Shown here in pieces: positions 10,349 through 62,336 of a stretch of 64,000 nucleotides of DNA. Source of the stretch: Candidatus Latescibacterota bacterium. GTDB lineage: Bacteria > Latescibacterota > UBA2968. The notes beneath the pieces were generated by a model. The model worked only from the letters and a program-made list of their open reading frames with translations, did not search any database and was not told the origin of the DNA. Within the stretch, counting starts at the first letter, position 1, and the number at the start of each line of letters is the position of its first letter. The stretch spans positions 1,376,001 to 1,440,000 of the forward strand of contig OZ240241.1 in the NCBI GenBank assembly GCA_965198115.1, written 5' to 3'. A program made the translations under genes and the position numbers.

Positions 10349-11557
10349 CTAGCGTCGTGCTTTCTTGGCTTTCTTTGCCGCCTTCTTCACTGCCCTCTTG
10401 ACCTTCTTTGCCGCCTTCTTCACGGCTCCTCTGGCCTTCTTCGCGGCCTTCTTGGCTGACCTCTTGGCTTTCTTGGCCGTCTTTTTTACGGTTGTAGCCG
10501 TCTTCTTCGCCGTTCTTTTCACTTTCTTGGCTGTTTTCTTTGCCGACCTCTTCGCCTTCCTGGCGGGTTTCTTCACCTTCTTTGCTTTTTTCGCTTTCTT
10601 GGCTGTTTTCTTTGCCGCTTTTTTCGCCTTTTTTGCCTTCTTCACTTTCTTCGCCCTCTTGGCCTTCTTCGCCGAAGCGCTCGCCGCACCCTCGATCCAG
10701 ACCCTGTCGCCATCGGAATCCAGGATCGGAAGTCGACCGCCGTGATGCACGCCAGGTCCGTAGAGAACGGCCTGCTGTTCCGGCGTCAGTTCATTCACCC
10801 ACTCGCCGTAGCGCTCCTGAGGCGTGAAGTGCTTGCCTACAGCACGTGCAGCGGCGCGAGATGCGTACTTGTAGAGGATGGAACGCCGGTCGTGATCGGC
10901 CGTCCACGGGAGCGTCCCGTGTGTCGCCGCTTCGGCGAAGAACAGCAGATCGCCCGCCTTCATTTCCACCTGCTCGACCAGACCCATGTCGTCTTCGTAG
11001 GTCCGAACTTCATTCGGCGTCGGCTCCGCGAGCTTATGACTTCCTGGAACGATCGCGAATCCACCGTCCCCCGGCCCGCAATCCGCCAGCTGCCACCCCA
11101 CCGTGATGCCACGACAGTAAATCTTGCCGTTCTGCTGGTGATACCACGTCGCCTGACTGAACGGCTCCCCCCCACCGTGGAATCGGTGGCCCTCGGACCC
11201 CTTCCTGGCCTGAATCATCATGGGGCCGTGGTCCAGGCGAAATCCCTTCCCGCTGAATTCATTCAAACGCGAGACGACGAATGGATGAACGAGCAGCTTG
11301 CGAAACGGCTCGCGGTAGTGCGGCTCCCACCCGAGCATGCCCGTCAATTCGGTTCGGCTCGACGATCCGGCCAATGACTTGGCACCGCGAGACAGACGAC
11401 CGGCTTCGAAATTTCTGGCCTGCGACATCTTGGCGTCGAGGGCGGCATTGAGTTCGCCGATTTCGCCCTGGCCGAGCACGCTGGGGATCACAAGGTAGCC
11501 GCGTAGATCGAAGAAGTACATCTCTTCGTCGGATACTCGGTGCACCTCGTAGTTCAT
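10349..11557 (-). CDS. PhyH-family dioxygenase fused to a ~110-aa Lys/Ala-rich histone-H1-like tail
   Basis: YFFDLRGYL, VPGSHK and THGTLPW, followed by KKAK/KKTAKK repeats. ATG at 11557 with RBS aaggag. Confidence 0.88.
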   Translation of the reverse strand: MNYEVHRVSDEEMYFFDLRGYLVIPSVLGQGEIGELNAALDAKMSQARNFEAGRLSRGAKSLAGSSSRTELTGMLGWEPHYREPFRKLLVHPFVVSRLNEFSGKGFRLDHGPMMIQARKGSEGHRFHGGGEPFSQATWYHQQNGKIYCRGITVGWQLADCGPGDGGFAIVPGSHKLAEPTPNEVRTYEDDMGLVEQVEMKAGDLLFFAEAATHGTLPWTADHDRRSILYKYASRAAARAVGKHFTPQERYGEWVNELTPEQQAVLYGPGVHHGGRLPILDSDGDRVWIEGAASASAKKAKRAKKVKKAKKAKKAAKKTAKKAKKAKKVKKPARKAKRSAKKTAKKVKRTAKKTATTVKKTAKKAKRSAKKAAKKARGAVKKAAKKVKRAVKKAAKKAKKARR

Positions 11558-18210: not shown

Positions 18211-19598
18211 GGTCAAGTCCCATAGTCAGTTGAAAACTCATCGGGCCCCGTAGTTTGGTCAGGCTCTCTTTTGAGCATTCTGTTCGTTGTCGAGATTCAG
18301 ATCTTTGTTCAGTGCTTGCCTGAGTAGGGGAAGATGTTTGTATCCGCTCACGCGTCGCAGGCGAGGTTCGATGTCGAGGAGTGCGGCAGCCACCCATCTG
18401 TGTCTCTGGGGAGAGTTGTTCCAGCGTCTGACCTTCCGAGTGAGCTCGCCGGTCCTGCTGTTGAGGGCTTCGATGCAGTTGGTGGTTCGGAAGCTTCGTT
18501 TCAGGAATGGGAGCATACCCAGCCGGTGGAGGGTCAGGGTTTCCTCCAGGCCTTCCTCGAGGCTCGTTACGGCAGACTGATTCATCAGCTTCAGTTCGGG
18601 TTTAAGTGATTCGAGTGCGGCCTTTGCCTCCTCGTAGGTGTCGCAGTCATAGGCTTTCTGGAGCTTCCGTCGAACTCTTGGACGTTCCCTCTCCGGGAGA
18701 TAGCTGACGACATTCTCGCGCTTGTGCCACTGACAGCGATGCACGCGCACATACCCTTTGAGGGCTTTGGTGACAGCACTGCGGAGTCCCTTTGAGCCGT
18801 CAAGCACAACGAGAAGGCCCTGGTCGTAGCACAGGCCTCTCCGGATGAGGTCCTGGATCAGCTGGCGGCAGATCCGTTCGTTCTCCGTCGCCGATTCGAC
18901 GAAGCCCAGGGGGATCTTCTGGCCGTCCATCGTGACCCCCGGAGCGATCACGATCTCTTCGTCGGCAAAGCTCTTTCCGTCAATGAACAGGGTCACGAAG
19001 CCGTAGTCGTCGAGGGGACGCTCCTGGAACTGCTTCAGCTTCTTCGCGGTGGCTTTGATGAACCGCCGCGAGACGGAGGACGCTGAGATACCAAACGCTT
19101 CTGGAACCGATTCGGCACAGGCCTTGTAGTTGCGGCACGAGATCCCCTTGAGAACACGAAGCAACAGCCCCTCGTCCGTCTTCTTGGGCGTCTGTAGAGC
19201 CCGGTATGCAGCCAGGGAAACCTCTGCGTCGGCCTCGACGTCGCGCACCCGGGGAACGTCTAACGGGAGCTTCTGGTCCATCAGATACACGGATCCCTTC
19301 TGGCTTCCCCACCGACGATGCGCCTGCTCCGAACCTTTGCGCGCATACCGAACGCCTGCGAGCTGCTCGACCTCCTGCTGGAGGAGGTCTGCCACTGCCT
19401 CCAGACCCAACGGGATCAACGCCTGGATCACCGACAAACGCGTCTCCAAATCGATGACATCGCCCTCAACCTTGACTTCACCATCGCCTGCAAATAGCTT
19501 CTCCATCTGGGCTCCTTTCTTACGGGTATACGCTCCTACACGTCTACCCAACGTAAGTTTGGAGCCCTCTAAGTTTCAACTACGATAGGCACAACACC
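18211..19598 (-). mobile_element. IS256-family IS type C, complete copy
   Basis: IRs ggtcaagtcccatagtcagttgaaa / ggtgttgtgcctatcgtagttgaaa, with 9-bp TSD tttcaggtt. Confidence 0.93.
18259..19551 (-). CDS. IS256 transposase (type C)
   Basis: FIDGK, LDGSKGL, RCQWHK and RTTNCIE. Confidence 0.92.
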   Translation of the reverse strand: MGRRVGAYTRKKGAQMEKLFAGDGEVKVEGDVIDLETRLSVIQALIPLGLEAVADLLQQEVEQLAGVRYARKGSEQAHRRWGSQKGSVYLMDQKLPLDVPRVRDVEADAEVSLAAYRALQTPKKTDEGLLLRVLKGISCRNYKACAESVPEAFGISASSVSRRFIKATAKKLKQFQERPLDDYGFVTLFIDGKSFADEEIVIAPGVTMDGQKIPLGFVESATENERICRQLIQDLIRRGLCYDQGLLVVLDGSKGLRSAVTKALKGYVRVHRCQWHKRENVVSYLPERERPRVRRKLQKAYDCDTYEEAKAALESLKPELKLMNQSAVTSLEEGLEETLTLHRLGMLPFLKRSFRTTNCIEALNSRTGELTRKVRRWNNSPQRHRWVAAALLDIEPRLRRVSGYKHLPLLRQALNKDLNLDNEQNAQKRA

Positions 19599-49651: not shown

Positions 49652-50119
49652 CTGACAGCGATGCACGCGCACATACCCTTTGAGGGCTTTGGTGACAGCA
49701 CTGCGGAGCCCCTTTGAGCCGTCAAGCACAACGAGGAGGCCTTGATCGTAGCACAGGCCTCTCCGGATGAGGTCCTGGATCAGCTGGCGGCAGATCCGTT
49801 CGTTCTCCGTCGCCGATTCGACGAAGCCCAGGGGGATCTTCTGGCCGTCCATCGTGACCCCCAGAGCGATCACGATCTCTTCGTCGGCAAAGCTCTTTCC
49901 GTCAATGAACAGGGTCACGAAGCCGTAGTCGTCGAGGGGACGCTCCTGGAACTGCTTCAGCTTCTTCGCGGTGGCTTTGATGAACCGCCGCGAGACGGAG
50001 GACGCTGAGATACCAAACGCTTCTGGAACCGATTCGGCACAGGCCTTGTAGTTGCGGCACGAGATCCCCTTGAGAACACGAAGCAACAGCCCCTCGTCCG
50101 TCTTCTTGGGCGTCTGTAG

Positions 50120-50913
50120 TGTGACGCCTTGCGATAATTCTCCGCCCGGCTTAAGCTATTCGCAGAATAGGCAGAATCGTTTCAATACGGTTAACAGTGG
50201 AGACCGTTCCCTAATGAGTTGAGGGTCACCTAAGATCTGGCGGCCATGCGACATAGTGCCATAGGAGTACTTACAAGGCGCAACGGCCAAAAGCGGTTGT
50301 CGGACCTACGCCTGATGTCCCTTTCTTTACGCGAACGCGTTTGGCACATTCCGGGGGATCGGGACGCGAAACGCTCTCGACCTCCGACGGAGTCCACGAC
50401 CGGCAGCACCGCCAGGGAGACGGCCGATTTTCTACCCCGCTTCGCCATTTTCGGGAAGCACCTTCAAAGCCGCCTTGTCGACAGACGCAAGCTCTTGTTT
50501 TTGCACTGGTTTAAGTGTTTCCGACACCTGAAAAAACCCCCTTTCGTCGACAACGGCCGCGATGCGCCCTCCGGAACGAAAATTAGGACGGATTAGTAAA
50601 AGAAACGGTCTCAACCGGTGTCCAAAAGAGAGCTGACCGTTTCCACCCCCCCTACCCCCCCGGTGCGGGCCTCGGGCCAGCGACGCGCCCAGGGCCAACA
50701 CCGCGCACCCCCCTATGCCCGCTGGGACCTGGCCTGACCACGTCTTGAGCCTAATCGGTCCTATTTCTCGCGGCGTGTGGGAAAATGAAAAAGGGCGCGG
50801 TCTACATCGGAACGCCCAGAGAGTTCATCCCCCTTAGCCCCGGGTCGTCAGTTCTTGGTGCGTGAGAATGCGAATAGCGTAACTTGGGAGGGAACCTATC
50901 GTAAGCCGTAACA
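50120..50913 (+). repeat. 794-bp MITE-like unit, copy 1
   Basis: About 45-bp imperfect terminal IRs. Apparently identical to 60674-61467. Confidence 0.9.
50230..50448 (-). pseudogene. Short ORF with terminase-small-subunit-like N-terminus
   Basis: MAKRGRKSAVSLAVLP, downstream of a G-rich cos-like motif. Confidence 0.35.
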
Positions 50914-51051
50914 ACTATGTCGCATGGCCGCCAGATCTTAGGTGACCCTCAACTCATTAGGGAACGGTCTCCACTGTTAACCGTATTGAAACGATTCTGC
51001 CTATTCTGCGAATAGCTTAAGCCGGGCGGAGAATTATCGCAAGGCGTCACA
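50914..51051 (-). repeat. Inverted copy of the first 138 bp of the 794-bp unit
   Basis: Exact reverse complement of 50120-50257. Confidence 0.92.
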
Positions 51052-51404
51052 GCACTCCTACCCTTACGGGTGGAGGATTCCAGCCGATCAATCTCGGTGA
51101 ATAGGAATGCACACTAGGAAGATACGGTTTCCGCCGGGATGGCGGCAAGGTGGAATGGGGAAATCTGGTTGTTGTATTGAAGGTTGGTTGGCAGAACCGC
51201 TCAGAGACCAGATGGGGAGAATTCCTAACTGTTCGTCGTCACCCGCCTATCAGATGGTTGTGCGAACGATTCGGGCGAGAGAACCGTGGGAAATGCCCGA
51301 ATAAGCGTGCAGAGGTAGAACGGATTCTGGAATGAGGTCCCTTCCAGATCGCTCCCCGGTTTTTATACCGTGTGTTTCTGTGACTGTCTCCCGAAAGCGC
51401 AGAC

Positions 51405-54400
51405 TTAAGCCGGAAGCCCCACAAATAGCCGACTCCACACATCCTCCAGCGAATCCACTTCGCCTGTTTCCGCAGCCCGTGCAAAAACAACTCCTGGGCG
51501 TCTCACATTGTGGGCTCTCGCAAGCACTCCATAGCCTTTAATCTCTGCCTGCAGCTCTTTGTCGAACTCCTCCATCTCGTGTACGATTCCCGCCAGGCCG
51601 CGCCGGGCACCCGGAACGCGCCCGAAGACCTCGGCAGGAGTCAGCCCTTCGGCCCACCCGTGTGGAATCGGTACCAGATTCATCTCCATATCTCGTACCA
51701 CACCGGCTCCCCCGAGATACTGTTTCAACTGACGCTCATTCCCTCGAGCACCGGACTTGAACATCAGGTTTATTGGCCCCCATCCATCGCCGTCGAATAC
51801 GTCCGACCTCACCACATAGCCTTCGATCTCCTGGGCATACGCCTGCCACTCATCCGCATCGTTTCCTTTAGGTTTTGGGGGCAGTTCCAGATCCGATCCT
51901 ACAAACGGTCCCATAGACAAGCCCAGCGTCTTTGCCACATCGTAGCCTCGATGCATCAGCTTCTGCGATACATCCAACGCAGCCTCGGGTCCTTCCCTGT
52001 CAAGAACTTCTGCCATCGCCTCAATCACGGTGGAATGAGTAACCATACCGTGCGTGGTGGCAATCGAGGCCCCGGCTAGCTCCTCGATCTCTCTCAGCCC
52101 CTCCGGTGATCTGCTGAGTTCCGCAAGCCCCATCATAGCGTCCATCCTGGGAGGTAGCGCCTGAATCAGTCCGGGATCTCGCCGGAGGTGGCCTGCCACG
52201 CTCAGGAGATCGGCCGCCTCCTTTTGTCCTGACTCGGTCAGGGGCAGGTAGACAGCTGCCTGATCTCCATCGAAATCCGCATTCATCATCTCGCAGACAA
52301 GCGGATGTACACGCAGCACATTTTCCGGAATGCGTCTCGGCCGGAAAACGACGAACGACATCGGGGCAACGGCAGGGGCCCGATAGAGAATCAACCACGA
52401 TGACGCCATCGCCTTGTCCAGCGCTTCGGCGCCCCTTTGGCTACGCTCTTGCACAGGCCTGGGATCTCCCAGCTCTCGAACGGCCAGAGGCCCGAACAGC
52501 GACCAAGCTATTTCTTCTGCCACGCCCAGCTCATCAATGCCCAGCTCAGGCCCGGGGGCAATCACCGTCCGTCCACTGAACAGAACGCGTGACTGGAACG
52601 CCATTTTGTCCGGGTGTACCAGCGCATCCAGATATTCTGCAACCCGGGCCCCCAGGTGCTCCGCAGCTTTGCGCGTAAGCGCCTCAGGCATCCCATCCTT
52701 CAGCATGCGCGACAACCGATCGTTCGATGCGGCCAGAGCAGCATATTCCACCAGATCCTCTGCAACCCCCACCACATCACAGGATCTGCTCGCATTCCAC
52801 GGATGCGGGACAGGCCTGATAAGCCCCAAGACATCGCCATGCGGCTCGACGAAGTCAAAGGTCAGCCTGGAGTCTCCGAGCGCGGCTCTGACTCCGCCCG
52901 CCCTCAACCCCTCCTGTATGCGCAGGAAACCGGCGCGAGGAGGTGCAGCCTGCGAGATGCTCCCTGAAGCCACGCGATCCTCCAGGGAGTCCGATCCCTC
53001 CTGTGCCGCCGCACACGTGTGGCTCTGCTCGCGGATGGTCTCGTATGCTCCAACGTCCGCCAGAACCCGATACTCCGTCTCCCCCATGGCCTGCCCACGA
53101 TAATCTCCGGGAGCCGTCCCCGAGTGGATCTTGTCCCTCACCAAGTGAGAAGTGACTCCCCAGTAGACCCAGCCAGCCGTACTTCGACGCTTCAGGGGAT
53201 GACCCTTCACCGTCAGCGCCTCCATACCATCTTCATCCAGCCCGGCATTCTGCAGCTGCTCGCGAAGCGCTTCTGCCTTGGGCGCTGAAAACGGAGGAAC
53301 AATGCACGGCGAACCGGTCGCCTTCGCGATCCGTCCCATTACTGCTTCCCGAACAGCGCCGTAAGCCATTCGGGACGGGAGGCTACATACGCTGTAGATG
53401 AGCTCAACGGGCGTCCCATCGGCGAGGGTTGGCATCTCCGCATCGGGCAGAATACGGCCGACCACACCCTTGTGTCCGTGGCGATTCGACAGCCTGTCTC
53501 CCACAGCAAGAATGTTAGGTGTCCGCATGCGGTCCGCACACGACTCGCTCACCACGATCGAATCCTCGAACGCATCCCCATCCCACGAGATGAACGCCGT
53601 CAACAGATTGTGTCCCATCCAGAAGAAGGGTGTGTCCGGCTCGTGTCCTGTTTGCACCAAAGCCGGTTCGGGCGCCATTCCCTCCGCTTCGCTCATCATC
53701 TGTTGATAGGCGTGGAAGTCACCGGCTTCCTGGATCGGCATCTCTGGATCAGGCTTTCCAATCCATTGGCGCATCATATTCACGCCCATAAGGATCCGGT
53801 TCGAATCGCTGTGCTCGAGGAAGGGAATCGATGCAGCGCCCATCCCCAGCGTGCCTTCGGGACTGTCGTCCACGATCACGATCCGGTCGTCTTGGATGGC
53901 GGCGCCCCGCGCAATCTCCAGAATCAACCCGATATTCGGTCCTTCCGGAGTGCAGAACGGGCAGACCCGTCCCTGCTGACTGGCGACTACTACCGGAATA
54001 CCCGTCAATCTGAACGGGGGCGCCGCTTCCCGTCCGATATGTTCAAGGGATAGGCGTCTCAAGTGCGTGTAAACGTCCAGCCAGTTCGTCACCTGCAGGT
54101 ACTGTGAACTACCCTGGTGTTGTCGGTATCGGCCGTTCAGATAGGTGTGCCACTGCCCGACGTGGAACTCCTGAAACCAATCGTCGATCGGCAGCCACGA
54201 TCTGGTCAGATCAGCATCCCAGGACAGGCTATGCGGGGCGTCTCCCAGACGTTCGGCTATGAAATCCCGCAGCTGATCTCCCACGCAGCTGATCTCCGCA
54301 TCAACCAGGTCCGGGGAGGATGCCAGCGGCACGACCACCCGGTAGCTCCCTTCTACTTTGAACACACCGGCATCGTCCGGTTTCGGCAGATTGTCGAACG

Positions 54401-54581
54401 AGAGCAGCACATCGCCGTCCGCGCCCTGAACGATCACTTCCACGCTACACGTGTATGGTCCTGTCGACTCCGTACGGTAGTCCACTAACGGCACCCGCTC
54501 TCTCAACAGATCGGGAAGGAATTCGTTGACGAATCGATCCCACGACTCCTTGTGCCAAGGGGCAGCATCATTCAAAGACAT
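51405..54581 (-). CDS. Miniaturised single-chain RNA polymerase beta-beta' fusion (RpoB/RpoC-derived, 1058 aa)
   Basis: beta motifs: CPFCTPEGPNIGL, IPFLEH.D.NR.LMG.NM.RQ, FEDSI, GDRLSNRHGHKGVV, PSRM, HLV.DK, GQ.MGE.E. beta' motifs: FSGRTVI, RAP, HPLVC..NADFDGDQ, SGARG, GARRGL. The ATG overlaps the sigma stop (TGATG). Confidence 0.92.
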   Translation of the reverse strand: MSLNDAAPWHKESWDRFVNEFLPDLLRERVPLVDYRTESTGPYTCSVEVIVQGADGDVLLSFDNLPKPDDAGVFKVEGSYRVVVPLASSPDLVDAEISCVGDQLRDFIAERLGDAPHSLSWDADLTRSWLPIDDWFQEFHVGQWHTYLNGRYRQHQGSSQYLQVTNWLDVYTHLRRLSLEHIGREAAPPFRLTGIPVVVASQQGRVCPFCTPEGPNIGLILEIARGAAIQDDRIVIVDDSPEGTLGMGAASIPFLEHSDSNRILMGVNMMRQWIGKPDPEMPIQEAGDFHAYQQMMSEAEGMAPEPALVQTGHEPDTPFFWMGHNLLTAFISWDGDAFEDSIVVSESCADRMRTPNILAVGDRLSNRHGHKGVVGRILPDAEMPTLADGTPVELIYSVCSLPSRMAYGAVREAVMGRIAKATGSPCIVPPFSAPKAEALREQLQNAGLDEDGMEALTVKGHPLKRRSTAGWVYWGVTSHLVRDKIHSGTAPGDYRGQAMGETEYRVLADVGAYETIREQSHTCAAAQEGSDSLEDRVASGSISQAAPPRAGFLRIQEGLRAGGVRAALGDSRLTFDFVEPHGDVLGLIRPVPHPWNASRSCDVVGVAEDLVEYAALAASNDRLSRMLKDGMPEALTRKAAEHLGARVAEYLDALVHPDKMAFQSRVLFSGRTVIAPGPELGIDELGVAEEIAWSLFGPLAVRELGDPRPVQERSQRGAEALDKAMASSWLILYRAPAVAPMSFVVFRPRRIPENVLRVHPLVCEMMNADFDGDQAAVYLPLTESGQKEAADLLSVAGHLRRDPGLIQALPPRMDAMMGLAELSRSPEGLREIEELAGASIATTHGMVTHSTVIEAMAEVLDREGPEAALDVSQKLMHRGYDVAKTLGLSMGPFVGSDLELPPKPKGNDADEWQAYAQEIEGYVVRSDVFDGDGWGPINLMFKSGARGNERQLKQYLGGAGVVRDMEMNLVPIPHGWAEGLTPAEVFGRVPGARRGLAGIVHEMEEFDKELQAEIKGYGVLARAHNVRRPGVVFARAAETGEVDSLEDVWSRLFVGLPA

Positions 54582-55186
54582 CAGTCTCCTCCCTCTCCCT
54601 CGAATCTCCGCCATTGTCGGGCAAGCTCCTTCCGGGCGTGATGAAGCCTCGACTTCACAGTGCCTTCCGGCACACCCAGCCGTTCGGCCACCTCGCGCAT
54701 CTCCATCTCTGCATCGTGCACCATCCGGACGACCTCGCGTTTCTCCTCCGGAAGCTCATCGATACGTCGCTGCAGCCACTGGTGTCGCTCACGCTGTTCG
54801 ACCCGAGCATCTGGGCCAAGTGAAGCGCTGTCAACGAGCCATCCAGGAGTGAGCGTATCGTCGTCATCCTGCACGCCATCGAGCCAGAGAACCGGCTCGG
54901 TCGGTGCCTCTCGTCGTCGACGGACCCACCGGAGGTGATTGTAGGCCAGGTGTGTGCCGATTCGAAGCAGCCACCCCTGCAGCGTCCCGCGGCATTCCCA
55001 CTGATCGGCCCGGCTCCAGAGACGGATAAACACCTCCTGCACCAGGTCTTCAGCCGAGGCAGAATCGCGGACAATTCTGTTAACGCAGGCCTTTATCTGT
55101 CCCTCAAACCTGTCGAAAACGACCTCGAAAGCCTGTTCGTCCCGGTTCAGGATTCTGTTCACAAGCTCTCGATCCGTCTCTGCCAT
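54581..55186 (-). CDS. ECF (sigma70 group 4) sigma factor
   Basis: Region 2 AEDLVQEVFIRLW...WLLRI..HL.YNHLR, and region 4 LPEEKREV...EVAERLGVPEGTVKSRLHHAR. Confidence 0.93.
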   Translation of the reverse strand: MAETDRELVNRILNRDEQAFEVVFDRFEGQIKACVNRIVRDSASAEDLVQEVFIRLWSRADQWECRGTLQGWLLRIGTHLAYNHLRWVRRRREAPTEPVLWLDGVQDDDDTLTPGWLVDSASLGPDARVEQRERHQWLQRRIDELPEEKREVVRMVHDAEMEMREVAERLGVPEGTVKSRLHHARKELARQWRRFEGEGGD

Positions 55187-55204
55187 TCGGGATCCCCACC
55201 TTTA

Positions 55205-55231
55205 AGGACACCACAAATTGAACCGAGTTCA
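55205..55231 (-). promoter_or_regulatory. Candidate autoregulatory ECF promoter
   Basis: Minus strand TGAACT-N16-GTCCT about 20 nt upstream of the sigma ATG. The -35 lies in the palindrome TGAAC-tcg-GTTCA. Confidence 0.45.
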
Positions 55232-55688
55232 TTCGATTATCGACATCTTCTACAGACTGCGCAGATGGCACAGACATTGTACTCCAGCTGTACCATCCCT
55301 CGCAGCTCGTTGCGGATCCAAGAAGAATGGGCACGTCCTCTACCTTCTAAGGACATGCCCAAATCTGAAAACAGGTTTCAGGTCAGTTGCGCCCCGTTCC
55401 AATGGCATTCCGGGGATACCGAGGGGCTAAGGGTTCAGCGTTCTACCGATGCGTGCCACTTAAAGTATTTCGCTCTGCCCTTGTTCCAGGCGGTCACTTT
55501 CCTACCTTGCAGGATGTCAAGCTTCCATCGACCGACTCTCGGTCCGCCTCACACACAACAAGCCTCATACAACAACTAGGCACACTCGCCGGTTTACTTG
55601 ACGTAACGTGCTCCTTTTCGGTAGCCTGTTCCTTACGTGCGTGGCGGTCACCAGCTTTATGGCCCTATGTCCATGCGCAACCCGTCGC

Positions 55689-56218
55689 GGTCAAGTCCCA
55701 TAGTCAGTTGAAAACTCATCGGGCCCCGTAGTTTGGTCAGGCTCTCTTTTGAGCATTCTGTTCGTTGTCGAGATTCAGATCTTTGTTCAGTGCTTGCCTG
55801 AGTAGGGGAAGATGTTTGTATCCGCTCACGCGTCGCAGGCGAGGTTCGATGTCGAGGAGTGCGGCAGCCACCCATCTGTGTCTCTGGGGAGAGTTGTTCC
55901 AGCGTCTGACCTTCCGAGTGAGCTCGCCGGTCATGCTGTTGAGGGCTTCGATGCAGTTGGTGGTTCGGAAGCTTCGTTTCAGGAATGGGAGCATACCCAG
56001 CCGGTGGAGGGTCAGGGTTTCCTCCAGGCCTCCTCGTTGTGCTTGACGGCTCAAAGGGACTCCGCAGTGCTGTCACCAAAGCCCTCAAAGGGTATGTGCG
56101 CGTGCATCGCTGCCAGTGGCACAAGCGCGAGAATGTCGTCAGCTATCTCCCGGAGAGGGAACGTCCAAGACTCTCTTCGTCGGCAAAGCTCTTTCCGTCA
56201 ATGAAGAGGGTCACGAAG
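55689..56218 (-). mobile_element. Scrambled IS256-C remnant (3' end plus an inverted and a deleted internal piece)
   Basis: 55689-56031 matches the IS 3' end, about 56030-56170 is an inverted internal piece, and about 56172-56218 is another internal piece. Confidence 0.85.
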
Positions 56219-57111
56219 TGTTCGCGACGTCTGTTGTGTCGAAAGACGAACTCATCCAAGTAGACTTGGAGCTGTTCACGACTGACGCCGTGATGCGTGC
56301 CAACCAGCCATTGCTGAAGGTTTCCGATCGCTCGGTCCACCAGAGGCACCACGGATTCCGCTCCCTTGCGAAGTTCCGCCCGATGCGGCTGGGAACGGGC
56401 AACGTGGTAGCCTTTCGCGTTGAGTTTCTCAAAACTCTTGAGTCCGTCAGTGTGGATCGTCGAGCCGGGCGTGACGTTCTGTTTGGCGAAGTCAACGAAC
56501 GTTGTCGACTTGAAATCTGGAATCACGGTCATGCGGAGACGCCCGGATCTGTTTGATCCGCGTTTCTCTACAGCAACCAGTACGAGCGCCGCACGGCGGC
56601 CCTTGAGCTGTCGGCTTCCGCGGAGTCCGGGTTGAGGCCCGCCGATCCAGGTGTCATCGATCTCGACCTCTCCGTGGAGGGGTTCACGCGCCTCATTGAC
56701 CATTGCTCGTCGAAGCTTGTGAAGCATCATCCAGGCGGTTTCGTAGCGCTTGAGCCCCAGTTGACGCTGGATGAGAAGCGCCGAGATCCCACGTTTGTCG
56801 GTGGTCATCAGGTAGGCAGCCCAGAACCAAGCCGTCAGCGGCGTTTTCGTCCTGTGAAGAACCGTCCCGGACGTCAGCGACACTTGATGCCTGCAGGAAA
56901 ACACACTCCCACTGTCGGCGTTTGGCGACCGTGTAAGCTCGATCGTGACCACAGCGTGGGCAGACGAAACCGTCAGGCCATCGACACATCGCCAGGTAGT
57001 CTTGACACGCCTCTTCGGTAGCGAACTGGCGCTGAAACTCGCTCAGGTTTTTCGGGAACGGAAGTCTTCGCACGCCCGAACACTACATGATAGTGCCCTC
57101 CTGAGTCAACC
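56219..57111 (-). mobile_element. IS1595-family element, frameshifted and 3'-truncated
   Basis: RWPDGFVCPRCG, SGTVLHRTK, EIDD, IHTDG, GTHHGVS and YLDEFVFRHNRR. Confidence 0.88.
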
Positions 57112-57129
57112 AGGATCGGATTCCGCTCA

Positions 57130-57600
57130 AACAGACTGTTGCGGAGTTCTTCAACGGTGGTCTTGAAGTAACGCACCCAGAGCAGGTTCTCCTTGAGAAT
57201 GCGGATGAAACGCTCGGCGCAACCCCTTCCTTCCGGGCACGCACAAAGCTTGGCGAGGCCTCGATACCCTGGGAGGCGATCTCGAAAGGCGTCAGAGACG
57301 TATTGGGACCCGTTGTCGTGACAGACGCGGGCGAGGCCTTGAGCGATGTCCTTTACCAAGGCGCCGAAGTGACGGCGGACGCCCTGTCGTGCAGTGATCG
57401 ACCGCCACGAACACACTTGCCGTGCCTTCCCCGGTCGTGATCGTCTGAGTCAGATCCGTGCCCACATCGCGTCAGGGATCGGAGTCGTGATCGTGCCGTC
57501 GTGGGCTGAGGACCGCGGCGTGACCCTGTCCGATTGGGTGCCTGTGAACCGTTCTCACGCATCAGACTGTCCTCCTACAGTTCCAGCACACATACAACCA
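57130..57600 (-). pseudogene. Heavily degraded IS3/IS481-type integrase remnant
   Basis: HDNGSQYVS and AERFIRILKENLLW. Confidence 0.6.
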
Positions 57601-58295
57601 CCGGTGGATCGTCCAGCGACACGGCTACAAGACGCCGACTCAAGTCCGAGCCGAGAAACTGGCGGCCAGACGCGCCGACTGAATACACTCACTGGCGTGC
57701 CAGGTTACGCAGGGCTTTATAATCTTGGACCTGGAGCGGATGCCGTTTCAGCGCTGGGAAGCAGCCCCGCAAGCAGCCTTTTCGAGTTGCAATCCCTTAC
57801 GCGGCGTATGTCGACTGTCCTTGACCAGTCCCGGATACCGAGCGTCCGGCACTGAGGTGCTACGGCTGTCACAAAGCGTTCTCTGCGGCGAGCCCCTCTT
57901 ACCGCGTTAGCTCGACCGAGGACACACCCGAAAGATCGGCGATTGGGAGATCGGCGGCACCTTCGTCCGCCGGGCAGCATGCCCGAGGCCAGATCGTCCA
58001 AGACCGCGTCGGCCAGACTGCCCGGCCGTGAGCGTCCAGCGCCCCAGCGAGTAGGATTCCCCGATCCGGCACATCTGGTCCCGGCCAGCCTCAGACAAGA
58101 TTGCAATCCGCGTCGATTGCCACTCCCGACGACGCTCGGCCCTGGTAGGTTCGCCGGCGCCTTCGCATCCGACAGCAGCCCTCGCCGTCGGTGAACGGAG
58201 TCCCGCGCGCCAGACGGTTCTTCAGCTGTACGCGCATCTCCTGAGGGTCGCAAGAGATCGTCTTCGTCGAACGCCGCCCTGAACGACGGCGGGCA

Positions 58296-59678
58296 TCAGC
58301 TTGTATCCGTCCTTCCGCCTCCGGCCTGAAAGTCGCCCAGGTCCTGCTCGTAGAGGCGCTCGAGCAGGGCCTCCCTCCGGCTCTTCGGCAGGGCTTTGAA
58401 GTTCCGCGCGTCATCGGGGACCGGCGCCACCGCCGCGACGGTAGAGGCCCGGTCGTCGACCCACACCACGAGGCGCGACGGGTCCTCACGTTCGCGCTGG
58501 AAGCCCACCGTCACCTTCTGGCCCACGACCGAGAGGAACGGCTCCCTCCTCGGCAGCTGCCACGCCTTCCCGCAACACCGCACCGTCAGGTCCCCGCGCA
58601 CCACGGCCTGGACGCGGTCGTAGAGGTAACGCTCCCACACCTCAGAAGGCATCACACGCACGGCACCGGCCAAGCCGGCCGACCACCTGAGAAACGGCGG
58701 CTCGGCCGTCACGGCGTGCGCCCGGGCGTTGACTTTGTGCAACAGATCCAGCAGCAGCGCGTTGGCCTCCTCCAGAGAAAGACGCACGCCCTGGTCGACG
58801 TGCACACGCAGCAGCGCCGTCAGCCTCCGCTTGAGCGTTCCGATCTGCCGCTCCACCTTTCCCTTGGCCGCCGGGTTCCCCACGCGGTGACGCTTGAACG
58901 TCACGTCCACGTCTTGAATAAACTGCCGGAACAGCGACGACTGCGGCGCGCTGTCGTTGTCCGAATACAACACAACCGGACACCCGCAGAACGGGAACGC
59001 CGCTTTCTCCTCCCAGGCCCGTGCGCAGAAGTCGACCCAGTTGAGCGCGTGCTTGCCGAAATAGAGCCGTGCATACGTCGCCCGCGAATAGTCGTCCACC
59101 AGACAGAACAGGTGCAGGCGGGGGCGCCCGTTCCGGGAACGCGCCCTCCCTTTTTTCTTATCCGCCGCGCCGATCGAGCCGTCGGGTGCGACGAAGTAGC
59201 GCGGCAGCTCCGTCACGTCCAGTTGGTGCAGCCCGTTCGAATGAGGCGCCTCCCAACGCCGGTGCGGCACCGTCTTGAGCCGGGACGTGACCGGCCCGGT
59301 CAGCCGCCTCGGCGCCGTCAGCTGCTTCAGGCTCACCCCACGGGACCGCAAAAAGCCGTTATACGTCGACACCGAGATCGCTTTCGGGGCGATCCAGCCC
59401 TGAGCCTCGGCCTGCGCGATCACGGCTTCGGCCGTCATCCCGTAGCGCACCGTCAACGCCATCATCTTCAGCATCGCGCGGTCGCTCACGTCCACCCGCC
59501 GCCGTCCCTGGTCGGAACGCCTGGACCGCCGACCCTCCTGCCCGACCCACCGGTAGACCGTCGACACGTGAACGCCCAGCGTGTGCGACCACCCGTAGAC
59601 CGCGGCCGTGAACGCGCCCCCTTCCAACCCCCGGCACGAACGACGCACCTCCTCGATGATTTTTGGACCATACGCCAC
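58296..59678 (-). CDS. Mu/B3-type DDE transposase (integrase); C-terminus probably frameshifted
   Basis: N-terminal HTH (VSTVYRW, RRSDQG) and DDE core HQLD...VDDYSR...LYSDN...NPAAKGKVER. Confidence 0.85.
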   Translation of the reverse strand: MAYGPKIIEEVRRSCRGLEGGAFTAAVYGWSHTLGVHVSTVYRWVGQEGRRSRRSDQGRRRVDVSDRAMLKMMALTVRYGMTAEAVIAQAEAQGWIAPKAISVSTYNGFLRSRGVSLKQLTAPRRLTGPVTSRLKTVPHRRWEAPHSNGLHQLDVTELPRYFVAPDGSIGAADKKKGRARSRNGRPRLHLFCLVDDYSRATYARLYFGKHALNWVDFCARAWEEKAAFPFCGCPVVLYSDNDSAPQSSLFRQFIQDVDVTFKRHRVGNPAAKGKVERQIGTLKRRLTALLRVHVDQGVRLSLEEANALLLDLLHKVNARAHAVTAEPPFLRWSAGLAGAVRVMPSEVWERYLYDRVQAVVRGDLTVRCCGKAWQLPRREPFLSVVGQKVTVGFQREREDPSRLVVWVDDRASTVAAVAPVPDDARNFKALPKSRREALLERLYEQDLGDFQAGGGRTDTS

Positions 59679-59729
59679 GGCAGACCTGCCTTTCCTTTGT
59701 AGCCCCTTGTCTTAGGGGGCGGAGACGCC

Positions 59730-60575
59730 TCAGTCCTCCACGCCGGATACGCCCTCAGCGATGTGGAACCGCGTATCGGAGAGCCCATCGGGCGTCAGGA
59801 CGTGCACGATACCCGTCACCTTCTGGCTCAGCGTGCAACCGAACGCCTGCACGGCGTCACGAACGGGCGCCTTTGACAACCCTTGATCGCCATATTCTTC
59901 GGCATACTCCAAAGCCATACGTTCGAGCACCCCGACAACCCGGATCGCACGCGCGAACTGCGCCTCAAGCCGTATCAGCGGCGGCTGCGCGTCCTCGCCC
60001 TCACGCAGCAACCGGTTCTCGGCCGCCAAACCCCGTGATCTCGCCTGCTCCGCCCTCAGCGTCCCCCGGAGCGCCGCGTTTTGCCCTCGCGACTGCCGCA
60101 GTGCTGCCTGAAGCTGCCGGTAACCCATCGTGGCCACGTCGTCCAGTTTTCTTCCCAGAAACGATTGACGCGACATCGCCTCCCTCATCTCCTCATCCGA
60201 CACATCCAGAAGCGCAAGCATCTTCTTCTTCGAATCCCCCGAAACAGCCTTCAAAAATGACCGCGCGAGCGGACATTCCGACTCCACAACACGCTGCGCC
60301 ACGCGCATGAACTCCGAACTGCGCTGACGGCTCATCCCCAACTCACCAACCCACGCCACGAACCGGCCGTGGCCGATCGTCCCTTTCACCCAGATCAGAT
60401 ACTTCCCGATCGTCACCATCTCCTCCAAGACGCTCATCCCCACGTCCAGAATCCGCTGCTTGATACGATCCAGATCGAAATCAAGACCGTCCTGATACGC
60501 CGCCAGATCCGGCGCGGCTTCCGAGGCGGCGCCTGCAGACCTACGGCCAGATGTCGAAACCTCCGAATCCCTCAT
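59730..60575 (-). CDS. DUF3102-like phage protein
   Basis: IGKYLIWVK....HGRFVAWV...GMS.....FMRVA. It lies directly upstream of the transposase, as in transposable phages. Confidence 0.75.
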   Translation of the reverse strand: MRDSEVSTSGRRSAGAASEAAPDLAAYQDGLDFDLDRIKQRILDVGMSVLEEMVTIGKYLIWVKGTIGHGRFVAWVGELGMSRQRSSEFMRVAQRVVESECPLARSFLKAVSGDSKKKMLALLDVSDEEMREAMSRQSFLGRKLDDVATMGYRQLQAALRQSRGQNAALRGTLRAEQARSRGLAAENRLLREGEDAQPPLIRLEAQFARAIRVVGVLERMALEYAEEYGDQGLSKAPVRDAVQAFGCTLSQKVTGIVHVLTPDGLSDTRFHIAEGVSGVED

Positions 60576-60673
60576 TCCGACCTTCCTGTCATCAACGATT
60601 CCGGCTTTTTGCCCGGCGAGAGCCGCGACCTACCCTTACCTCCGCCCACACATCCTCATCCCATCCGCTCCAT

Positions 60674-61467
60674 TGTGACGCCTTGCGATAATTCTCCGCC
60701 CGGCTTAAGCTATTCGCAGAATAGGCAGAATCGTTTCAATACGGTTAACAGTGGAGACCGTTCCCTAATGAGTTGAGGGTCACCTAAGATCTGGCGGCCA
60801 TGCGACATAGTGCCATAGGAGTACTTACAAGGCGCAACGGCCAAAAGCGGTTGTCGGACCTACGCCTGATGTCCCTTTCTTTACGCGAACGCGTTTGGCA
60901 CATTCCGGGGGATCGGGACGCGAAACGCTCTCGACCTCCGACGGAGTCCACGACCGGCAGCACCGCCAGGGAGACGGCCGATTTTCTACCCCGCTTCGCC
61001 ATTTTCGGGAAGCACCTTCAAAGCCGCCTTGTCGACAGACGCAAGCTCTTGTTTTTGCACTGGTTTAAGTGTTTCCGACACCTGAAAAAACCCCCTTTCG
61101 TCGACAACGGCCGCGATGCGCCCTCCGGAACGAAAATTAGGACGGATTAGTAAAAGAAACGGTCTCAACCGGTGTCCAAAAGAGAGCTGACCGTTTCCAC
61201 CCCCCCTACCCCCCCGGTGCGGGCCTCGGGCCAGCGACGCGCCCAGGGCCAACACCGCGCACCCCCCTATGCCCGCTGGGACCTGGCCTGACCACGTCTT
61301 GAGCCTAATCGGTCCTATTTCTCGCGGCGTGTGGGAAAATGAAAAAGGGCGCGGTCTACATCGGAACGCCCAGAGAGTTCATCCCCCTTAGCCCCGGGTC
61401 GTCAGTTCTTGGTGCGTGAGAATGCGAATAGCGTAACTTGGGAGGGAACCTATCGTAAGCCGTAACA
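60674..61467 (+). repeat. 794-bp MITE-like unit, copy 2
   Basis: Direct repeat of 50120-50913 at an offset of 10554 bp. Confidence 0.9.
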
Positions 61468-62336
61468 TCTGTAGAGCCCGGTATGCAGCCAGGGAAACCT
61501 CTGCGTCGGCCTCGACGTCGCGCACCCGGGGAACGTCTAACGGGAGCTTCTGGTCCATCAGATACACGGATCCCTTCTGGCTTCCCCACCGACGATGCGC
61601 CTGCTCCGAACCTTTGCGCGCATACCGAACACCTGCGAGCTGCTCGACCTCCTGCTGGAGGAGGTCTGCCACTGCCTCCAGACCCAACGGGATCAACGCC
61701 TGGATCACCGACAAACGCGTCTCCAAATCGATGCCATCGCCCTCAACCTTGACTTCACCATCGCCTGCAAATAGCTTCTCCATCTGGGCTCCTTTCTTAC
61801 GGGTATACGCTCCTACACGTCTACCCAACGTAAGTTTGGAGCCCTCTAAGTTTCAACTACGATAGGCACAACACCGATGAACCAAGGCATGCCGATCCTC
61901 CTTGACACAGCAACACACGTTCAGTCAGACTTGAATTTTCGGGAGGCACCCATCGTCAATCCATTGTTTGAACCGAGTTCGTCCCCACAAGGTTCAACTG
62001 GTTTGCATTCCTTGCCCTGGCCTCTGCGCCGCCACAATCATTCGGGCACTGCTCAGGCCTTCTGAGCGAAGTTGATCGACGTCAATCCATGCTGTCAGAG
62101 ACGATCAGGATGCTCGCAGACGCTCCTTATCTGCCTTTTGAGAGGTCCAGAGTGTATATCTGACCTGCACGAATGAGATGGACATTCTTTAGCCGTGCGC
62201 CGGGTGCTGGCCCTCCTGCCTGCAGGATCTGTTCCAGTGCCGTGATCCGGCCTTTGAGCGGATAGATCCCCGGACCCGAACGGTGCTCAGCAAGAAAATG
62301 CCGATTAAGTGAGCCGAGCACATAGACTTTCTTGCT

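Follow-up and report, generated by a model that had tools for sequence, protein, structure and literature searches.

Does a short repeat that moves as a transposon carry a phage packaging signal, and what would such a signal do for it? The question is raised by the window, by which we mean the whole 64,000-nt stretch of DNA analysed here, in which an initial annotation had placed a G-rich, cos-like motif and the start of a small-terminase ORF on the minus strand of a mini-element; both are confirmed in the sequence, and both recur 10,554 bp away.

A gene-less transposon in at least 18 copies

Copy 1 of the mini-element spans TGTGAC to GTAACA (50120–50913), and the two window copies are identical over 794 nt. 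The features that concern its extent and its possible partner are these.

50120–50913, plus strand: mini-element copy 1, 794 bp, TGT...ACA, non-autonomous
60674–61467, plus strand: mini-element copy 2, identical to copy 1; predicted cosN at 61171–61162, minus strand
50120–50166, plus strand: imperfect inverted repeat at the left terminus; a ~12-bp motif occurs at positions 6 and 28
50867–50913, minus strand: right end, imperfect terminal inverted repeat
50914–51051, minus strand: extra inverted left end (positions 1–138) of another copy
58296–60575, minus strand: DUF3102 gene and truncated Mu-type transposase (Mu-like prophage remnant), probable passenger DNA between the copies

Two direct copies had been described, and that pair stands, but the element is not limited to it. 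The 8.43-Mb host genome (one contig) holds 17 whole copies of 751–823 bp, an eighteenth that is split by two IS insertions, and fragments. The ends form imperfect inverted repeats of ~47 bp, and TGT...ACA termini are found in all 17 whole copies. A 7-bp target duplication is exact at 11 of these 17 and has a single mismatch at one more; three have none, and the remaining two are the window pair, which has one joint duplication at its outer ends. The IS-interrupted copy is duplicated at its flanks as well. Dispersed copies with 7-bp duplications show repeated transposition and, together with the terminal inverted repeats, bear out the earlier suggestion that the mini-element is transposable. 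It encodes no transposase: three ORFs scanned inside it have no Pfam or PHROG match, and its longest ORF is 116 aa. Internal deletions are frequent among the copies. The mini-element is a gene-less, non-autonomous transposon of ~800 bp with at least 18 copies. A perfect inverted repeat of 138 bp, at 50914–51051, is not the element's own right end; no other whole copy has it, and it represents an additional left end, from another copy, that probably remained when one copy inserted into another.

In class, the element resembles MITEs and mobile insertion cassettes (MICs), which the available text of PMC3281130 and PMC11389934 describes as non-autonomous transposons: it lacks a transposase and has terminal inverted repeats, target duplications and many dispersed copies. 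It differs from them in its cargo, two cos-like modules and a terS stub whose alleles are shuffled. With the IS21 family it shares TG...CA termini, imperfect ends of ~50 bp and a hint of two internal repeats; the 12-bp motif at positions 6 and 28 hints at an internal 22-bp repeat, with at most 10 of 12 matches between the ends. Unlike that family it has neither istA nor istB (IstB remnants elsewhere in the genome have unlike ends), and its 7-bp duplications differ from the 5 bp duplicated by IS5376 (PMC10122671, whose accessible part also gives TG...CA ends and internal repeats for the family).

An autonomous element with the same ends and a transposase was found neither in the host genome nor in pattern scans of GTDB and IMG/VR, nor in 167 other genomes of the phylum. 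The element thus shows the MITE features that we tested, and a partner with matching ends was not found in the genomes scanned. The host genome is crowded with IS copies, and we rejected its rve-family IS copies and its IS21 remnants as sources of the partner transposase because their ends do not match. The neighbouring Mu-type transposase was rejected as truncated (460 aa versus ~538 aa). Its homologue in another genome (G105, 41% identity) sits in a Mu-like prophage, and no ends like the element's were found in 35 kb around that homologue; being truncated, and with no similar ends on the G105 prophage, the Mu-type transposase beside copy 2 is probably passenger DNA and not the element's own enzyme. 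The same G105 prophage speaks against placing the element among mini-Mu derivatives. Mu itself packages from its own end by a headful mechanism and makes 5-bp duplications.

Several neighbouring observations concern mobile DNA in this and related genomes. The Mu-like transposase region has three remnants (window 58296–60575; host 117818 and 5660742), which suggests a decayed transposable prophage. A 1.38-kb rve-family IS occurs at host position 1779491 and 16 other places; its flanks appear to carry long target duplications, and a TGT start is visible at one end only. In genome G004, two partial look-alikes of the element end (C1, 364609 and 2568124) belong to a ~150-bp intergenic repeat whose first 45 bases are similar to the element's right end.

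The cos modules and the terS stub

The putative packaging features of copy 1 all lie on the minus strand.

50578–50660, minus strand: cos module 2, the motif first noticed; G-run, AAA, spacer, GGACAC, core, T tract, TAAT box
50608–50617, minus strand: predicted 10-nt cohesive end (cosN), CGGTTGAGAC
50770–50842, minus strand: cos-like module 1, weaker match
50346–50448, minus strand: terS 5' stub, ~34 codons, P27/PAJU2-type small terminase; frameshifted by one extra base near 50391

A first cos HMM, made from eight named phages, was weak (E 0.95 or worse), with element copies taking 17 of ranks 3–25. A cos weight matrix was derived from 37 non-redundant viral upstream regions of the stub's TerS family, with no input from the element. 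Its source was 74 of 80 IMG/VR loci of that family, six having been dropped because the match did not start near the N-terminus; 6 of the 43 long loci were removed as near-duplicates, and 8 of the 31 short loci were set aside (one too short, seven under 5 bits) to leave 23 scorable. We scanned both strands of the host genome with rigid and with flexible (three-block) spacing; the flexible score was devised after the rigid result had been seen, so that its ranks are not fully blind, the matrix itself never having seen the element. Under rigid spacing, ranks 1–8 genome-wide are all element module 2. Under flexible spacing, ranks 1–14 are filled by module 2 of the element and by three orphan modules near 8.40 Mb, and all 19 module-2 places fall within the top 43. 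Since an element-free model puts such modules at ranks 1–14, the cos motif goes beyond chance. The window's own module 2 scores 18.2 bits (rank 25–26), inside the range of seven known phage junctions (16.8–32.6 bits) and below the best background match (19.7 bits), so the cos claim rests on the family of copies.

The register of the motif agrees with physical phage ends. Of the 23 scorable short viral contigs, 14 begin exactly at position +16, and the records of HK97, D3, phiE125 and HK022 are also cut there. Phage 16-3, which has an annotated 10-nt cohesive end, has its record cut at +15, so that five of seven phage records are cut at +15 or +16; PAJU2 is cut at +6, the other core edge, and SfV is off. 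From these viral contig ends and known phage ends we predict a 10-nt cohesive end at 50617–50608, for which other copies carry the alleles CGGTCATGTC or CGGTAGTGGA.

Module 1 was not listed by the initial annotation and ranks 49–577 in the genome scan. It begins TAGAC-CGCGCCC, like the PAJU2 junction, the CGCGCCC core start being that of both PAJU2 and D3, and at 50817–50798 it has 18 of 20 bases in common with the cos region that precedes terS in the resident prophage; 4 of 2,000 random 110-nt windows reach this level, about the number expected to fall on the element itself. The proposed likeness of the motif to known cos regions is upheld by its register; it is the weaker module 1 that resembles the host prophage. 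In blastn, the cos region gave chance matches only against phages and none against plasmids; Rfam gave one chance match for the element, and a scan of the element for promoters and terminators found none.

Judged by its sequence, module 2 is a cos-type site of the HK97/D3 kind and a candidate for that function. As at the cos–terS junctions of D3, PAJU2 and HK97, a G-run, AAA, a spacer, (G/C)AC, a 10-nt core, a T tract and a TAA box precede terS, and the register is that of the phage record ends. Unlike those junctions, the element has a terS that ends after ~34 codons, no terL or HNH gene and a longer distance from cos to ATG (~155 nt), and it lies between transposon ends.

The ORF downstream, read on the minus strand, starts MAKRGRKS and had been annotated as a terS stub of 72 aa. 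That length is the product of a frameshift: in each window copy, a single additional base near codon 20 gives a chimeric 72-aa ORF that is TerS-like over ~19 residues only. Three of the 18 copies (both window copies and one other) carry a frameshifted stub; a 58-aa reading is present in 13 of 18, and the TerS frame is kept through ...RPDPPEC (~34 codons) in 15 of 18. A full phmmer scan with the first 36 residues found eight metagenome proteins, and the stub's relatives led to full-length proteins of 134–141 aa. Longer relatives match PHROG 12559 (terminase small subunit) at E 1e-15 to 1e-17, PAJU2 gp01 is matched at E 9e-9, and one protein of the family, P0022, lies above the cut-off for Pfam Terminase_4 (PF05119). 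The stub shares 27 of 33 residues with the full-length protein P0019, and hhalign of the stub against the TerS alignment gives a probability of 98.7; the stub alone against PHROG directly is weak (E 0.23). By homology, then, the first part of this ORF corresponds to the N-terminus of a small terminase of the P27/PAJU2 type: the terminase assignment holds for ~34 residues, and the 72-aa ORF as such does not.

The TerS-family profile matches 17 places in the host genome, all within positions 1–36 of 141, and has no match in 167 other genomes of the phylum. A full-length terS of ~140 aa followed by terL was not found in the host genome, whose sole TerL_ATPase match is in the prophage. Against phages, tblastn with the 58-aa or 34–36-aa stub gave only chance matches; stub queries found nothing in the ESM Atlas or in a search for longer proteins, and the PDB yielded no TerS structure for the family. 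At least ten metagenome proteins are themselves TerS stubs with a common break, P0005–P0008, P0010, P0012–P0015 and P0018 leaving the TerS sequence near residue 85. Judging from this shared break, the ~85-residue stubs may belong to a sister element with a longer stub.

Alleles, helpers and competing readings

Among 16 distinct copies, π is ~0.01 at the left end versus 0.21–0.24 across module 2. The core has three main alleles and the left arm two unrelated forms, which are combined in various ways, and four-gamete conflicts affect 657 of 1,283 distant site pairs versus 16 of 178 close pairs; the cos alleles are shuffled among copies. Alleles that differ at 23–29 of 74 bases still score 18–25 bits; after 24 random changes the median is 6.6 bits, and 15.8 bits, the lowest observed score, is reached in 7% of trials. 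This control lends modest support to the view that intact cos blocks are exchanged among copies rather than decaying, since the alleles are few and not independent (two left arms by three cores). The orphan module at 8.397 Mb has the same core as one of these alleles, and its identity to the element copies is 84–95% over 120–187 bp.

The orphan modules, three in number and without element ends, occupy host positions 8396800–8403560. Two of them are followed by distinct short ORFs that open with MARR or MAKR; in one region a terS stub is also present, fused to an IS21 right-end fragment. Elsewhere (5976093–5982105) a PICI-like island with an integrase and a PHROG 1889 terS adjoins a right-half remnant of the mini-element that contains both cos modules; an ORF in the island is presumably AlpA-like.

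The host carries a 42.8-kb prophage in a tRNA-Pro gene (641,601–684,468) with terS, terL, portal, protease, capsid and tail genes. It is apparently whole, an HK97-type siphoprophage with a 47-bp att repeat and a cos-like motif before terS. Its TerS belongs to another family (PHROG 83) and is not matched by the stub-family profile, and its predicted cosN core, CGGTAGGGTC, matches each element allele at 7 of 10 bases. From these comparisons the prophage is a possible, candidate helper; neither the profile scan of the host genome nor the comparison with this prophage turned up a matching helper. Same-orientation element pairs within 120 kb number three, at 10,554, 31,188 and 117,191 bp.

Beyond the host, 23 sequencing runs from 11 studies contain part of the element, three of them half or more. 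Four runs were examined: contigs of three other studies cover 150–350-bp pieces with few differences and without the extra base of the window copies. Two runs labelled sponge metagenome contain only 8% of the element's words. The element is present in none of 40 related genomes, and no further copy turned up when viral, GTDB and JGI collections were scanned with exact patterns and stub alignments, which yielded one distant terS locus.

The reading we prefer, at a probability of about 0.45, is that the element acts as a transposable packaging signal and hitchhikes with cos phages, spreading between cells when terminase starts at its cos site. A DDE transposase acting in trans on the IS21-like ends would copy it within the chromosome. 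When an HK97/D3-type phage multiplies, terminase would cleave cosN and load DNA in the direction of the stub and the left end, running on into the adjoining host sequence; as the DNA bound by terminase reaches into the beginning of terS, the stub would be retained. Packaging would be completed at another like-oriented copy, on a circle or on a concatemer, and for the 10,554-bp unit, rejoined cohesive ends would restore one whole element on a circle. The cos alleles would be renewed by recombination with phages and satellite-like islands at their cos regions. Hitchhiking draws support from the 7-bp duplications, the TerS homology, the cos motif match and the allele shuffling, from two unlike cos-like modules in tandem in a host with a cos-type siphoprophage, and from the related pieces in contigs of three other studies. 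It is weakened by the rank of the window's module 2 below the best background and of module 1 at 49–577, by a prophage TerS of another family with a cosN at 7 of 10 and no matching helper, by the presence of only three same-orientation pairs within 120 kb when set against a 42.8-kb prophage, and by the 3 of 18 frameshifted stubs, the 0 of 40 relatives with the element and the 0 of 167 genomes with the TerS profile. The fuller proposal, a natural MITE that distributes functional cos sites over the chromosome and exchanges cohesive-end alleles so as to follow the phages around it, we regard as doubtful.

A tentative alternative with a real claim is that the cos and terS sequences are neutral cargo: a transposon would have captured the cos–terS junction of a prophage or satellite by deletion and multiplied through its good transposase ends, with the cos variation produced by ordinary gene conversion with similar islands. 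A genome crowded with IS copies, common internal deletions, 3 of 18 frameshifted stubs and a helper that was not found in the genome all fit this account, for which the orphan modules at 8.397–8.403 Mb, at 87–95% identity, are possible passive donors; on a contig of one run (X8), 257 bp of the middle, module 2 included, are replaced by 104 other letters. Yet module 2 is retained in 18 of 18 copies in the host, two unlike cos-like modules stand in tandem, replacement alleles keep the conserved cos positions, and the ten or more metagenome TerS stubs with a common break suggest repeated capture of like DNA.

It is improbable that the element is an anti-phage decoy kept by the host, whose chromosomal cos copies would absorb terminase or be cut, waste heads and lower the burst. 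The chromosome does hold 23 or more cos-like modules, most of them spaced too widely for packaging to be completed, and several alleles could cover several phages; however, some 20 sites would be few against replicating phage concatemers, the scan found no promoter-like site, and the spread pattern is that of a selfish element.

The third alternative concerns the pair in the window, for which a satellite-sized cos-to-cos unit had been envisaged.

50113–50119, plus strand: target duplication TCTGTAG, left, inside an IS256-family element
61468–61474, plus strand: target duplication TCTGTAG, right

The intact IS256-type element at window position 19191 has the heptamer TCTGTAG once, which together with the outer duplication indicates that 50120–61467 was inserted as one composite or cointegrate. 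Inside the interval are pieces of IS elements, an ORF resembling RNA polymerase, an ECF sigma factor and a disrupted Mu transposase, and the nine long ORFs scanned between the copies or at their edges include no integrase, AlpA, primase or capsid-size gene. That the 10.5-kb interval is a PICI-like satellite packaged from cos to cos is thus largely refuted and very improbable: a pair of identical, directly oriented cos modules with a spacing of 10,554 bp would suit it, and PICIs with two cos sites exist (PMC6092414, in the part available), but its bounds are a 7-bp transposition duplication inside an IS256 element instead of att sites, none of the scanned ORFs is a satellite gene, and the other 16 copies have no such partner. 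At ~25% of the length of the resident prophage, the unit is probably too short for monomer cutting in a full-size head; the skipping of a short monomer in a full-size head is discussed for EcCICFT073 in the accessible text of PMC6092414.

Two further ORF observations belong to the window. Inside the composite, a 1069-aa ORF resembling RNA polymerase beta/beta-prime (51405–54614, minus strand) contains Rpb2_3, Rpb2_6 and Rpb1_2 domains, is much shorter than RpoB plus RpoC and lies directly after the ECF sigma factor ORF (54581–55186, minus strand). At 10370–10634 (minus strand) is a lysine/alanine-rich repeat that we take to resemble a histone H1-like protein.

Related systems and significance

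PICIs measure ~10–15 kb, whereas the element is 0.8 kb and moves by transposition to many sites. It also lacks the integrase, AlpA/Stl, primase-replicase, origin and att site of cos-type PICIs, of which EcCICFT073 (with two cos sites) and SaPIbov5 are examples in the available portion of PMC6092414. What it shares with these two is phage cos sites outside a phage, two of them in tandem, and, as proposed here for the element, dependence on a helper's terminase. Laboratory cosmids and mini-Mu offer a second parallel, a minimal packaging signal that makes attached DNA packageable (again as proposed for the element), from which it differs in being natural, chromosomal and multi-copy. Our search of the open literature, with subscription papers outside its coverage, found no report of a MITE carrying cos sites.

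According to the accessible text of PMC6687093 and PMC9006064, cos phages rarely transduce, two cos-like sites a headful apart being improbable by chance; the former also states that a second site, at roughly one headful's distance, is normally required for cos packaging. By multiplying cos sites, a transposon would lift this spacing limit on generalized transduction by cos phages. If the fuller and doubtful proposal of a MITE with functional, scattered cos sites is true, cos phages would carry any segment between two suitably spaced copies, and the element would spread between cells without encoding a single protein. Hitchhikers have been proposed to arise from non-transmissible elements that gain a cos or pac motif (PMC11389934, in the part available); the element would then be a minimal, protein-free step from non-transmissible element to phage hitchhiker, and the family-specific cos model is a means of finding such elements in other genomes.
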